55,695 nucleotides of DNA from Candidatus Taylorbacteria bacterium RIFCSPHIGHO2_02_FULL_43_32b (GTDB lineage: Bacteria; Patescibacteriota; Minisyncoccia; Phycocordibacterales; 2-02-FULL-43-11): assembly GCA_001820955.1 (NCBI GenBank), contig MHRK01000047.1:1-55695 (forward strand), read 5' to 3'. The first letter of the stretch is position 1; the number at the start of each line of letters is the position of its first letter. A program made the translations under genes and the position numbers. Of this stretch, positions 39,252 through 46,130 are shown in pieces. Below the pieces are notes generated by a model that did no database searches, was not told the DNA's origin, and was given only the letters and a program-made list of their open reading frames with translations.

Positions 39252-39452
39252 ACGTTCGAACTGCGAGTGGTCGCGGTGCGAACGGTGGTTAAAATATTTC
39301 CTAACAGGAAATAAGAGCATATGGTGGATGCCTTGGCTCGAGAGAGGCGATGAAGGACGTAGCGTGGCTGCGATAAGCTTCGGGGAGGTGCCTAGCAACC
39401 TTTGATCCGGAGATGTCCGAATGGGGAAACCCTGCGGCGTAAAACGCCGTAA

Positions 39453-39644
39453 CCGAAGCATCACATGGAATGTGATGAAAAATGCAAAATGTAAATATCA
39501 AAATTAAAAATGACAGTTAAAAATGTAAAAATGAAAGAAATTGGAAAATGTTTTTGTTTTCAATTTTAAAAATTTGCATTGTCATTTTACACTTTGATTT
39601 TTTAATTTTAAATTTAAAGCATCGCGTTTCGCGCGATGCTTCGG
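39453..39644 (+). other. 23S intervening sequence 1 (helix 9 region), containing a family F1 palindrome
   Basis: Closing stem ccgaagcatc...gatgcttcgg. Modules are catcacatggaatgtgatg, an F1 palindrome, then gcatcgcgtttcgcgcgatgc. Confidence 0.7.
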
Positions 39645-39745
39645 AGCGTACCCTGGGAAGTAAAACATTTCAGTACCAGGAGGAGTAGAAACTAATCAGC
39701 ATTCCGTAAGTAGCGGCGAGCGAAAGCGGAGAAGCCCAAACCCGG

Positions 39746-39906
39746 CCGCATCTCATTGCATTCGATGCGGAATTCTTAATTTTTAAATTTTGTAATTTTT
39801 TAAATAATTTTCTAATTTCTGAATGTTTACACATTTGGTCATTGGGATTTGTTTAGAAATTAAAAATTAGAAATTAGAAATTCCACTCGAGCGTAGCGAG
39901 ATGTGG
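39746..39906 (+). other. 23S intervening sequence 2 (domain I), containing a family F3 element
   Basis: Closing stem ccgcatctc...gagatgtgg. The interior, ~120 nt (aatttttaaat...ttagaaattaaaaattagaaattagaaattcc), is closely similar to 44332-44442. Confidence 0.65.
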
Positions 39907-40221
39907 CAGGGGGTTGTAAGGTAACGGCGTCGGTTTTATATCGAGAAGAGTTACAAAATTGTTTGTTAATTGAATCTGCTGGAAAGCGGAGCCCAAGAAG
40001 GTGATAGCCCTGTAAGTGAAAATAAACAATCTCTTTTGCCGTTATTCTTGAGTACTTCGAGACACGAATAGCTCGGAGGAATCTGCCGGAACTAACCGGT
40101 AAGGCTAAATACTCATCGAGACCGATAGTGAACTAGTACCGCGAGGGAAAGGTGAAAAGCAGTCCGTTGAGGACGATGAAATAGACCTGAAACCATATTG
40201 CTTACAAAGAGTTGTAGCGGG

Positions 40222-40368
40222 CGCATCACATGGGATGTGATGCGGATATGAATTATGAATAAGGAATTATGAATTATGCCGGGAAAATTGCGTAGCAATT
40301 TTCCCCAACCATTATTCATAATTCATACTTCTTAATTCATGCTTGAGCATCGCGTTTCGCGTGATGCG
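40222..40368 (+). other. 23S intervening sequence 3 (helix 25 region), containing a family F2 palindrome
   Basis: gcatcacatgggatgtgatgc, then an F2 palindrome (gaattatgaataaggaattatgaattatg...), then gcatcgcgtttcgcgtgatgc. Confidence 0.7.
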
Positions 40369-40994
40369 TCCGTGGCAGCGTGCCTATTGAAGAATGAGCC
40401 AACGAGTTGATGCATTCGGCGAGGCGAACTCCCGTTAAAGGAGGAAGCCGTAGGGAAACCGAGTGTTAATAGCGCGAATAGTCTAATGCATCAGACCCGA
40501 AGCCAAGTGAGCTTGCCTTGAGCAGGATGAACCCTCGAGAAATCGAGGGGAAGGTCCGAACGCTAGAGCTGTGCAATACTCTGCGATGACTTGAGGTAAG
40601 AAGTGATAAGCTAATCGAACTTGGTAATAGCTGGTTCTCTCCGAAATAGCTTTTGGGCTAGCGTCGAGTGATCCTTTAAGGGGTAGAGCACTGGATGGTC
40701 TGGACAGGTCGAAAGACCGCTAGACCAATCAAACTCCGAATACTTAGAGTTATAACTCGGCAGTTACACCGTGGGGGCGAAGCTTCACTGGTGAAAAGGG
40801 AAACAGCCCGGATCTCCAAATAAGGTCCCTAAATTTATGCTAAGTGCATCACAAGGTGGTGAAATTTCTCAAACAATGAGGATGTCGGCTTAGAAGCAGC
40901 CATCATTCAAAGAAAGCGTAACAGCTCACTCATCGAGAGATTTTGCGCCGAAGATAATCGGGGCTAAGCATAGTACCGAATTTGAGGGCACAGG

Positions 40995-41131
40995 AAGCAT
41001 CACATTGCATGTGATGCGAATTATGCAGTATGAATTATGAATTAAGGTTTTCGGAAAATCGCTTTGCGATTTTCCTCCATAATACATAATTCATTATTCA
41101 TAATTCGGCATCGTGCGTAGCGCGATGCTTC
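40995..41131 (+). other. 23S intervening sequence 4 (helix 45 region), containing a family F2 palindrome
   Basis: Closing stem gaagcatc...gatgcttc. Modules are catcacattgcatgtgatg, an F2 palindrome, then gcatcgtgcgtagcgcgatgc. Confidence 0.7.
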
Positions 41132-43381: not shown

Positions 43382-43698
43382 TGTCGGGTAAGTTCCGACG
43401 CGTTGAATAGTGTCATGTCTGAGCAACTGTCTCGGAGAACAGCTCGGTGAAAATACAGTACCGGTGAAGATGCCGGTTACCTGCAGCTAGACGAAAAGAC
43501 CCTGGAAGCTTTACTACAACTTGGTATTGAGTATATGTTTTTTATGCGTAGCGTAGACGTTAGGCTTTGAAGTGTCCCTTTCGGGGGGCATGGAGCCGCC
43601 AATGAAACAGCGTTCTTAAAAAATATATATTCTAACCTGTGCGGCAAAAACGTACGGGAACAGTATCTGGCGGGTAGTTTTGGTGGGGCGCTATCCTT

Positions 43699-44657
43699 GA
43701 GAACGTGAATTTTTTCGTGTTCTCAAACTATGGCGCCTCCGGCAAGGTTAATCTCTTGCGAAAAAAATAAAGTTAGAGGGCGTCATAAATTCAAAATGCA
43801 AAAATCAAAATGAAAAATGACCCCAGTAGCAGAGCAAATCTCGCTACGGGGCAGGCAATTGCAAAATGAAAAAATGACGGGTAAATCAGCGATATGCTGG
43901 GAAATCTGGTGTATCCGCAGCTACTTGGTGTACAATAGGAATGTTATAAATATCTAAATTTTTAATAACATGTCCGAAGAAATGCCAAGTGAAAATGCTA
44001 GCGGTGCAGAAAACCAGCAGGAATCTACTAACGAGCTTATTGAACGGTTTAGAAACCAACCAATTGAACAATATAAAATCGAGTTAATCAGAAAAGCCGA
44101 TGTAATTGAAAATAGGATTAGACATGTTAAAGACCTAATTCAAGAGTACGACGGAACTCATGGCGATATGAGTAGTATTTTTACGGGTCGATTGGGTGCA
44201 ATAGGAAGAAAACTTGATGAAATGGAGGAAGCCTTGGACTTTAATTTGAAGTCAGTAGCATTCATGAAAAGTCAGGAAAAGTAGTGGATATTCCTCAGAG
44301 ACCACCAGCTGATGCCTGTGAATACAGGAATGATTAATTTTTGAATTTTTCAATTTTTAAATAATGTTTCAATTTCTTAATGTTTAAGACATTGGGTTAT
44401 TGGGGTTTATTTAGAAATTAAAAATTAGAAATTAAGAATTCCGATGTACTCATCGGTTAATGTATGGTCCGAACTCTACCCTTCGATAAGGAGGGCTTGC
44501 CCGACTCAGGGCAAGTAGCGATATAGAGAGACAGGCAGAAATGTCCTGTCTGTAAACAAGATTTGTGCTTTCGTTTGCGCATGTATTCGTAGTCATTCGT
44601 TATGATTCGTATACATTCGTAGATTGGCACTTAATTTTGTTGTACACAACAAAATTG
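43699..44657 (+). mobile_element. 0.96-kb composite insertion in the 23S helix 81 loop region (class unresolved)
   Basis: Flanked by ..ggggcgctatcctt| and |tctaaaaagtaacgaaggag. Contains F1 (43786-43880), F3 (44332-44442) and F4 (44578-44624) repeats and a 104-codon ORF. U at -1 and a terminal G are possible. Confidence 0.6.
43970..44284 (+). CDS. Hypothetical helical/acidic 104-aa protein encoded inside the 23S insertion
   Basis: ORF track only. No nuclease, maturase or RT motif recognised. Confidence 0.35.
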   Translation: MSEEMPSENASGAENQQESTNELIERFRNQPIEQYKIELIRKADVIENRIRHVKDLIQEYDGTHGDMSSIFTGRLGAIGRKLDEMEEALDFNLKSVAFMKSQEK

Positions 44658-44899
44658 TCTAAAAAGTAACGAAGGAGTCTATTAAGGTTCCCTAGGCGCG
44701 AATGGAAACCGTGCCGATAGTGCAATGGCAAAAGGGAGCTTGACTGCGAGGGGGACATCCCAAGCAGGTGCGAAAGCAGAGCATAGTGAACCGATGGCCC
44801 GCGTTAGACGCGGCCAGAGATTATCGGACAAAAGCTACTCCAGGGATAACAGGCTAGTTCCGCCTAAGAGTTCATATCGACGGCGGAGTTCGGCACCTC

Positions 44900-45287
44900 A
44901 AATCGGGGCGCCATACCAGAAATGGTATTAGCTACTTCGACATAACACACAGGAGTGAACCCTGTTATGTTGTTGAAAAATATTGGCTTATAACGGTGGA
45001 ATCCTACGAATAAATTTTTTGCAAAATTTAGGCGAGGACAATCCCGTGGGAACCCAGCACCATTTATCGTAAGACGGTGAATGAAGTGGTGTTGGCGGCA
45101 GTGCTATTTATGTGACTATTTCCAGAAAGTAAATAAATGGTGCTGGACCCGTAGAGACTTTCTCGATGACCCAAATCGAGACTAGTCCGGAATAAATTTC
45201 CGGGCTAACACGCCAACTCCTCATCCTCCAAAAGAGGGAAGGAAGAAGATATAGTCCATACAATTGGAAACAATTGCTAAAAGATAC
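44900..45287 (+). mobile_element. ORF-less group-I-like intron in ..GGCACCUC|GAUGUCGG.. (about E. coli 2500, peptidyl-transferase centre)
   Basis: aagatatagtcc (S-element-like) at 45247-45258, followed by a caattg-gaaa-caattg hairpin. It shares ggct(t)ataacggtggaatc with the next intron. The canonical U(-1)/terminal-G junction cannot be placed. Confidence 0.65.
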
Positions 45288-45442
45288 GATGTCGGCTTAT
45301 CACATCCCGGGGCTGTAGAAGGTCCCAAGGGTATGGCTGTTCGCCATTTAAAGTGCTACATGAGCTGGGTTCAGACCGTCGCGAGACAGGTTGGTCTCCT
45401 ATCTGCTGCAGGCGTTGATTCTTGAGGAGATTCGTTTCTAGT

Positions 45443-45890
45443 AAGTAATTGCTACTTTATGGAGTAATCCATAATGACAATTTGGCTAATAACGGTGGAA
45501 TCTTAAGGTTTTTGGTCTGTTGATAACCATATCGAACACGGTCCGGTGATTATGGTACAATTTACTTGAGGACCAGAAATATTTAAGACAATACCGTGGG
45601 AAGCATTAGGAAATTAAAAATGCAAATATCAAAATCAAAAAATACTGATTAAATTTTGCGAAAGCAAAATTTACAATCTGAATAGAATTTGTCCGCCTTC
45701 GGCGGACGCTTCAATTTTACATTTTGATTTTTAAACTTTACATTTTCTTTTGCCCCGTAACGACTGGAGTCCGCCTTATCGGCGGACGAAGATAGTGGTG
45801 GCGAACGATTTCGCGCCATTATAATATGCCAACGACCAATTAGATTGGTCGAAGATATAGTCTACACACGTAGTGATACGTGAATATGTG
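45443..45890 (+). mobile_element. ORF-less group-I-like intron splitting the sarcin-ricin loop (..CUAGU|ACGAGAGGACC..)
   Basis: The 5' exon ends in U (45442) and the intron ends in G (45890). It has aagatatagtc at 45852-45862 and carries a family F1 palindrome (45611-45746) in a peripheral region. Confidence 0.7.
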
Positions 45891-46130
45891 ACGAGAGGAC
45901 CGAAACGAACTGACCTCTGGTGTACCTGCTGTCGTGCCAACGGCACCGCAGGGCAGCTATGTCGGGAACGGATAACCGCTGAAAGCATCTAAGTGGGAAA
46001 CCGCCTCCAAGATTAGGAATCGTTTAGACCCGTGGAAGACTACCACGTTGATAGGCTTTAGGTGTACGCACAGTAATGTGTTGAGCCGTGAAGTACTAAT
46101 CCGTCGATCTTGTTAGGAAATATTGGAGCC

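Follow-up and report, generated by a model that had tools for sequence, protein, structure and literature searches.

The window analysed here is a 55.7-kb stretch of DNA (contig MHRK01000047.1; 55,695 nt) from a groundwater member of Candidatus Taylorbacteria, which belongs to the Candidate Phyla Radiation (CPR, or Patescibacteria); NCBI names the encoded proteins Candidatus Taylorbacteria, in agreement with the CPR host proposed in an initial annotation of the sequence. Its main feature is a 23S rRNA gene interrupted by ten insertions, which by its Rfam limits lies at 39301-46107 on the + strand (as do all ten inserts), measures 6,807 nt with the inserts included and is colinear with E. coli rrlH. 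The bacterial large-subunit (LSU) model Rfam RF02541, the covariance-model check that the initial annotation had recommended, gave two colinear matches, one at 39301-42404 (model positions 1-2925, 1336.9 bits) and one at 43456-46107 (model positions 2045-2912, 462.2 bits), against a gathering score of 50, and the true 3′ end of the gene is probably at about 46117. A blastn comparison with E. coli rrlH returned 13 colinear blocks, and the gaps, which also take in some poorly conserved rRNA, fall at all ten places that had been named. Removing the ten intervals leaves 2,865 nt that align globally with the E. coli 23S rRNA (2,904 nt) at 65% identity, and the peptidyl-transferase centre (PTC), P-loop and sarcin-ricin sequences are then restored exactly. 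The prediction of a normal-length 23S rRNA holds, as does that of more insert than rRNA (3,954 nt versus about 2,860 nt). All ten proposed sites stood, and two of the proposed junctions were moved: insert 8 starts at 43698 rather than 43699, and insert 9 slides by 1 nt to 44899-45286. An additional 45 nt at 39907-39951 are normal CPR rRNA, found also in relatives. The inserts had been treated as one kind, but are of at least three: group I introns, a stem-bounded insert encoding a GIY-YIG protein, and five short inserts belonging to one repeat family, whose shared ends had been missed. Readings of the inserts as group II introns, tandem duplications or parts of a pseudogene found no support in the Rfam searches or in the alignment with E. 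coli.

Four of the insertions are in functional centres of the rRNA, as had been annotated, and these are the ones that we assign to the group I introns. They lie near the bridge (U1943), P-loop (U2262), peptidyl-transferase (U2500) and sarcin-ricin (U2656) sequences, and comprise insert 7 (42320-43381, after U1943, with a ribozyme core at 43081-43300), insert 8 (43698-44657, after U2262 in the 5′ strand of helix 81 (H81), beside the P-loop), and two introns without an open reading frame (ORF), namely insert 9 (44899-45286, after U2500 in the peptidyl-transferase loop) and insert 10 (45443-45890, after U2656 within the sarcin-ricin loop). The Rfam group I model RF00028 matches inserts 7, 9 and 10 with 30.7, 25.2 and 25.3 bits (local-search E-values of 1e-5, 1.7e-4 and 1.9e-4, respectively), and the group I core (J8/7-P7) reads GAUGAUAUAGUC in insert 7 and GAAGAUAUAGUC in inserts 9 and 10, with a P9 hairpin after each. 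Insert 8 shows colinear homology (E-values of 2.5e-19, 5e-9 and 9e-6) to a 516-nt intron that another Taylorbacterium (L031) has at this site and that passes the Rfam threshold with 54.2 bits, so that every one of the four has either the catalytic core or homology to an intron having it. All four are preceded by a U at position -1; a P1 U.G pair can be read from the sequence in insert 7 (UCCU/GGGA) and insert 10 (UAGU/GCUA) and from the Rfam alignment in insert 9, no P1 being identified in insert 8, and the last intron base is G in inserts 7, 8 and 10 and A in insert 9.

Introns are held by relatives at the same four sites. Those at U2500 end in G in nine relatives and in A in two (L035 and L212), and those at U2656 have a terminal G in 13 of the 15 interrupted relatives. 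In uninterrupted relatives the junction of insert 8 reads GGGGCGCTATCCT followed directly by CCTAAAAAG, which sets the start of this insert, and the placement given above is the best one for insert 9, with its P1 pair and a P10 read from the sequence. The core of insert 8 is split by an ORF of 104 amino acids (aa; 43970-44284) that has no Pfam match, and by a nested hairpin-rod-hairpin at about 44315-44456. The 90%-identity cluster of the 104-aa ORF has 3 members, the sole named one being from Candidatus Taylorbacteria.

Insert 7 carries an intact LAGLIDADG_1 gene of 304 aa (42362-43276, + strand), matched by Pfam PF00961 in two stretches with 43.4 bits (cut-off 23.1). This protein has 287 homologues, and the two that were traced to contigs both lie in introns at the identical U1943 site, with the same guide sequence, a U at -1 and a terminal G. 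We therefore regard U1943 as a common intron site, and rejected the view that it is unusual, for which the other CPR 23S genes in hand would have spoken (0 of 24 with an intron there). The coding content of these introns differs among strains of the same locus: L007 and L008 possess LAGLIDADG_2 and LAGLIDADG_1 ORFs in their U2500- and U2656-site introns, of which the window has ORF-less copies, while the interior of insert 8 differs in strain L006, with a 75-aa ORF where the window has the 104-aa ORF.

The other six inserts are stem-bounded and sit at helix tips, namely the H10 position, the H15/16 region, H25, H45, H63 and H68 (numbers that we take to be those of the E. coli secondary structure). 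From their positions and folds each is found at the tip of a variable helix and has an extended stem running on from the host helix, as is expected of an intervening sequence (IVS). Three of them had been mapped to classical IVS sites, which is correct for H25 and H45; the third, insert 1, replaces H10 rather than H9, and an intact H9-like hairpin stands just before it at 39434-39450.

Inserts 1, 2, 3, 4 and 6 are mutual homologues (alignment A1) that make up one family, here called hairpin-rod-hairpin (HRH). Each begins with a 5′ motif, GCAUCACAU-NNN-AUGUGAUGC, and ends with a 3′ motif, GCAUCGCGC-NNN-GCGYGAUGC, that is GCAUCGCG(C/U)-NNN-GCG(C/U)GAUGC, and between the two lies a variable, imperfect rod that is rich in A+U and has a central hairpin. 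These five places are the only ones in the window with the 5′ motif, against 0.01 matches expected by chance. The copies are insert 1 at the H10 position (39453-39644; motifs at 39458-39478 and 39619-39639), the diverged insert 2 in the H15/16 region after about E. coli position 272 (39746-39906; motifs at 39748-39768 and 39884-39904), where relatives hold HRH elements too, insert 3 at the tip of H25 (40222-40368; element 40223-40367), insert 4 at the tip of H45 (40995-41131; element 40997-41128) and insert 6 at the distal end of H68 (42104-42250; element 42106-42248). Rfam returned only sub-threshold plant and animal microRNA-precursor models for the short inserts, a result that reflects long hairpins and not homology.

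The window also holds two non-canonical copies. One, the seventh hairpin-rod-hairpin, is in the 23S leader at 38865-38996 (+ strand), and has a rod and central hairpin like those of inserts 3, 4 and 6; its terminal hairpins differ from the family motifs (GUUUUGC-UAA-GCAAAAC and GCGCCU...AGGCGC). The other lies within the U2262 intron, where a 117-nt rod segment (44327-44442) shares 84.6% identity with the rod of insert 2 (39769-39884). Since this rod is flanked by hairpins of its own (CCUGU-GAAU-ACAGG and CCGAUG-UACU-CAUCGG), we read it as a nested element of the same architecture.

Insert 5, in H63 (41674-41985, 312 nt), is of another kind, being enclosed by an inverted repeat of 23 bp without mismatch (41674-41696 and 41963-41985) and containing an ORF of 86 aa (41706-41966, + strand) that Pfam PF01541 identifies as a GIY-YIG domain (67.3 bits, E 1.5e-18, cut-off 22.6). 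The match covers residues 1-72 of the 86, and no DNA-binding domain is attached. Derivation of this insert from an HRH element was considered and rejected: its stem (GCACCAC/GUGGUGC) is HRH-like, but the 3′ arm is a plain reverse complement, and we take the likeness to be coincidence.

The structure of the HRH elements was examined in an ungapped alignment (A2) of 56 pairs of element ends, taken from curated copies of 43 CPR genomes. The host flanks are paired in 79% of cells, with covariation at all 8 pairs, and this pairing runs right up to the element, the innermost pair being present in 55 of the 56 copies. The local hairpin of the 3′ motif is paired in 97.4% of cells. The 3-nt ‘loops’ of the two ends are complementary to one another in 96.4% of cells, both partners varying at each of the three positions (UGC with GUA or GCA, GGA or GGG with UUC or UUU, CCG with UGG, and UAC with GUA), and none of 5,000 shuffles reached the observed complementarity, in a permutation test that ignores relatedness and in which the 5′ motif is fixed by the search pattern. 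Save for transitions, the two motifs are reverse complements of each other, and the ends could thus pair in a 21-bp duplex with four G.U pairs and, at a distance of four base pairs from one another, two conserved A.C oppositions. By nearest-neighbour energies the extended rod is better than the cruciform by 8.6 kcal/mol on average, and in 54 of the 56 copies. A fixed two-hairpin cruciform as the sole structure was rejected on these grounds, namely the covariation of the loop triplets between the ends and the greater stability of the extended duplex; the almost perfect pairing of the local hairpins makes both folds possible. Element length ranges from 66 to 182 nt, and the rods are hypervariable and low in complexity.

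The family is not confined to this organism. A scan with the 5′ motif through one genome per species returned 65 stretches, about 49 of them from CPR bacteria that include Paceibacterota, Nomura-, Kaiser-, Taylor-, Zambryski-, Staskawicz-, Vogel-, Wolfe- and Berkelbacteria as well as Saccharibacteria. The roughly 16 non-CPR matches (Flavobacterium, Massilia and others) have no 3′ motif or rRNA context and were set aside; their number is, by our own estimate, close to that expected by chance for an 18-base pattern. A metagenome scan with the commonest 3′ motif gave 50 stretches with 53 copies, all within or beside rRNA genes and about 47 with the 5′ motif upstream. The database scans yield over 100 HRH copies across CPR lineages, placed at the tips of helices in 23S, 16S and RNase P RNA or in the transcribed flanks of rRNA. 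In CPR 23S genes they follow E. coli positions of about 130, 230-270, 540, 1160, 1700 and 1850, and in 16S genes they were found after about position 70, at one further site and once just past the 3′ end. All 104 orientable copies share the polarity of the host RNA. In viral contigs scanned with both end motifs we found no paired element, the 5′-motif matches there being one unrelated phage hairpin and the matches to the G+C-rich 3′ motif having no 5′ motif nearby. A Saccharibacteria contig has an HRH element downstream of its 16S gene, near a match to a group II intron D1-D4 model (53.2 bits; L043, 6631-6744 and 6985-7118).

HRH elements are also present in RNase P RNA genes (Rfam RF00010), in L024 (104.7 bits), L020 (81.1 bits) and L050 (52.8 bits, with two copies); these hosts are other CPR bacteria, and the RNase P genes are at 589-1008, 3936-4496 and 1-564, respectively. 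The elements depress the scores to this range of 52.8-104.7 bits, where the gathering score is 100, which may be a reason for the difficulty of detecting RNase P RNAs in CPR bacteria.

Copy number in the window is five canonical plus two non-canonical elements, and other genomes have up to five. Rods share 7-mers about ninefold more within a genome (0.25) than between genomes (0.028). At the same time the rods of inserts 3, 4 and 6 are 0.66-0.75 identical to those of L076, of the Wolfebacteria L072 and of the Saccharibacteria L033, compared with a mean of 0.49 and a maximum of 0.66 in shuffled controls. The likeness of rods within a genome, along with subtypes in distant lineages, speaks for gene conversion, or for spread within the genome, together with a degree of horizontal movement.

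The same locus is found in other assemblies. The LAGLIDADG ORF is present on NCBI contig MHRU01000023.1 (assembly GCA_001821065.1), whose proteins are named Candidatus Taylorbacteria bacterium, and nine further contigs retrieved from ENA and JGI (L003-L011) carry the locus with 99.2-100% identity, so we do not consider it a mis-assembly. Among the fetched loci the nearest other 23S genes are those of two other Candidatus Taylorbacteria, at 85% identity. Strain L009 differs at the tip of H25, where it has an unrelated 106-nt rod lacking the conserved HRH ends (its positions 82-187, equivalent to 40223-40367 of the window), which shows that one site can exchange insert types.

A leader strand at 39226-39280 (+ strand) pairs with 46191-46250 in a leader-trailer processing stem that brackets the 23S gene (core 39237-39251 with 46214-46228; duplex energy -40.4 kcal/mol). 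A leader hairpin at 39136-39231 and a trailer hairpin at 46123-46217 (both + strand) are paralogues that are 83.5% identical. These two hairpins are in direct orientation and have many G.U pairs and (C/U)UAGG-type repeats, and rods made of similar (C/U)UAGG-type repeats occur within HRH elements of a Candidatus Nomurabacteria genome (L068). Downstream on the + strand are a tRNA-Thr(CGU) gene at 46396-46470 (ARAGORN and Rfam), located between the 23S and 5S genes, and a 5S rRNA gene at 46987-47094 (Rfam RF00001, 76.3 bits), which gives the order 23S, tRNA-Thr, 5S and a distance of about 870 nt from the 23S 3′ end to the 5S gene. An Rfam scan found no 16S gene anywhere in the window. This arrangement fits the unlinked rRNA genes that have been described for CPR bacteria (PMC8172020).

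We consider it probable that this is a working Candidatus Taylorbacteria 23S gene whose ten extra segments are dealt with in two ways, the introns being self-spliced and the helix-tip inserts excised by an RNase III-type enzyme to leave a fragmented mature 23S rRNA. Splicing, excision and fragmentation are what we infer from the features described above. In the primary transcript the leader-trailer stem would bracket the ten segments. The group I introns interrupt conserved, essential sequence and must therefore be removed and their exons rejoined, which they are predicted to achieve as self-splicing ribozymes. The intact LAGLIDADG enzyme of insert 7, for which cleavage activity is predicted, may still drive homing at the DNA level, and the other three introns would represent ORF-less or degenerate stages of the homing cycle. 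In each HRH insert the 21-nt 5′ motif would pair with the 21-nt 3′ motif and so prolong the host helix into a mostly double-stranded rod; an RNase III-type enzyme could then cut the HRH and GIY-YIG inserts at the basal duplex with no re-ligation, and the pieces of the 23S rRNA would presumably be held together by the host helices and remain functional.

Several observations weigh against this account. No insert of the window reaches the RF00028 gathering score of 50, and insert 8 has no RF00028 match at all, Rfam giving it only a weak microRNA match; we attribute the low scores to large internal insertions, and group I membership consequently rests on the combined evidence. Insert 9 (...CUAAAAGAUA at its end, then CGAUGUCGG) terminates in A and has no canonical G, and the same is true in four other retrieved contigs. 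A second 23S copy is conceivable, since our view is of 55.7 kb of the genome. The H25 rod of L009, being of another type, indicates that HRH motifs are not obligatory for a helix-tip insert. Finally, if structure alone were sufficient for RNase III, the 21-nt end sequences would not be expected to be conserved, and their conservation across CPR classes suggests recognition beyond generic cleavage of double-stranded RNA.

This last point leads to a broader idea, that HRH is a CPR-wide family of structured intervening elements served by dedicated, sequence-specific processing or mobility machinery instead of generic RNase III trimming. The ends are conserved in sequence from Saccharibacteria to Parcubacteria, including the two fixed A.C oppositions that flank the covarying triplets, and we put the idea forward tentatively, as possible but short of being the favoured one.

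A somewhat unlikely alternative is that the elements are mobile DNA resembling miniature inverted-repeat transposable elements (MITEs), with imperfect 21-bp terminal inverted repeats, moved within and between genomes by a CPR nuclease or transposase and spared by selection only at the helix tips of stable RNAs; such an origin would be compatible with later excision at the RNA level. The ends do form terminal inverted repeats that depart from one another by transitions only, and several copies per genome occupy different sites and genes, as in a multicopy element with terminal repeats. There is, however, no target-site duplication, the flanks instead being complementary and abutting the element without leftover loop bases, and the polarity shared by every orientable copy is unlike random insertion of a near-palindromic DNA element. 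The ninefold excess of shared rod 7-mers within genomes would suit mobility, but gene conversion between dispersed copies explains it equally well. Rod subtypes common to distant CPR lineages, and the variation among relatives in presence or absence at a given site, also speak for mobility, whereas the scans made found no copy between genes, in protein-coding DNA or in viral contigs, and no associated transposase was identified.

We think it unlikely that the HRH inserts, and perhaps the GIY-YIG insert, are instead retained in the mature ribosome as CPR-specific expansion segments whose 21-nt ends bind a ribosomal or assembly protein. Every host site is the tip of a surface helix, where extensions are tolerated, and sequence-conserved ends would suit a protein-binding site, but the rods between them vary in length and sequence and are of low complexity, as in a spacer that is removed, and their near-continuous duplexes of tens of base pairs make good RNase III substrates. 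The presence of HRH elements in RNase P RNA is in line with retention, and large helix extensions have been described in CPR RNase P RNA in a study that did not address their removal (Lui et al. 2021, PMC8172020). Against retention, an HRH-type copy is in the 23S leader and a canonical copy is past the 16S 3′ end (L043), both outside mature rRNA.

A decaying rRNA pseudogene or an assembly chimera, with an intact 23S gene in use elsewhere, is a very improbable reading of the locus: one contig was examined, it has no linked 16S gene and one of its introns lacks a terminal G, but with the inserts taken out the exons are conserved over their full length and give exact PTC, P-loop and sarcin-ricin sequences, a leader-trailer stem, downstream tRNA and 5S gene are present, the same structure is found in nine further contigs and the 23S genes of relatives are interrupted at the same sites, and CPR genomes usually have a single rRNA copy with unlinked rRNA genes (PMC11270868, PMC8172020).

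Interrupted rRNA genes are, as the initial annotation stated, known in CPR bacteria (PMC11270868, PMC9297842). In a survey of 348 CPR 23S genes 82% had insertions of at least 100 bp, with up to 16 insertions and 5,750 bp of insertion per gene (mean 1,327, SD 1,112), and the figures of an earlier study are similar (Tsurumaki et al. 2024, PMC11270868; Tsurumaki et al. 2022, PMC9297842). Group I introns made up 45% of the surveyed insertions, were biased to the 3′ part of the gene and were common around the PTC; LAGLIDADG_1 sites included one numbered 2657, which we take to be the U2656 site of insert 10; GIY-YIG ORFs were confined to non-intron insertions; and insertions below 200 bp were left as ‘uncharacterized’ and presumed to be RNase III IVSs at known IVS sites (PMC11270868). 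ORF-less introns have been argued to be later stages of the homing cycle for CPR generally (PMC11270868). The gene described here resembles these surveyed genes in its many insertions, its domain IV/V introns, LAGLIDADG_1 within introns and ORF-less short inserts at H25 and H45, and it belongs to the upper tail yet within the range (10 versus 16 insertions, 3,954 versus 5,750). The density of its insertions had been called extreme, a description that the published range does not justify. Brown et al. are reported to have described insertion sequences in CPR rRNA genes in 2015. Text and sequence-string searches, which did not cover the work of Brown et al., turned up no earlier account of the shared end motifs or of HRH copies in RNase P RNA, and a text search of the CPR insertion survey found no words for terminal motifs, hairpins or palindromes.

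LAGLIDADG group I introns in LSU rRNA include Coxiella L1917 and L1951, L1931 of Thermotoga and Simkania, and those at the I-CeuI and I-CreI sites. To our knowledge U1943, U2262 and U2656 are not among the classical organellar intron sites. The introns of the window are like known LSU group I introns in their conserved rRNA sites after U, their J8/7-P7 core and the existence of versions with and without an ORF at one site, but differ in that four occur in one gene, all score below the Rfam gathering score and one ends in A. A group I intron of WPS-2 is at 1931 (PMC4192840).

Turning to the helix-tip inserts, those of the HRH family can be compared with the RNase III IVSs of Salmonella, Campylobacter, Leptospira and Coxiella (PMC2801512, PMC4990558), which are likewise about 100-400 nt in length, located at the tips of H25 and H45 and provided with extended stems, in some cases with a small ORF, and sporadic among relatives. 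The RNase III IVSs sit in one or two helices, and we know of none that form one sequence family common to several helices, to 23S, 16S and RNase P RNA or to an entire superphylum. HRH ends are conserved in sequence, and the excision of HRH elements is proposed. The Correia elements of Neisseria (PMC2649163) are also short, multicopy and bounded by terminal inverted repeats, and the hairpins of their transcripts can be cleaved by RNase III; they are, however, intergenic and make a target duplication, whereas HRH elements are found only in stable-RNA genes or transcripts, follow the polarity of the host and make no duplication.

The heavily interrupted 23S gene is in itself an ordinary example of a documented CPR trait. 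The HRH family, as far as we could check, is new, and can be seen as a variant of the 23S intervening-sequence theme. It turns what have been ‘uncharacterized’ short insertions of CPR bacteria into a defined and searchable RNA element with conserved ends. Gene callers and primers for rRNA fail on HRH elements and introns, and a family model would aid the annotation of CPR rRNA and RNase P RNA. The elements also provide a concrete substrate for studying rRNA processing in the CPR; some of the Saccharibacteria that carry them can be grown in co-culture, so that excision, fragmentation and the nuclease responsible are open to experiment. The family traces the insertions of 23S, 16S and RNase P RNA back to a common origin.

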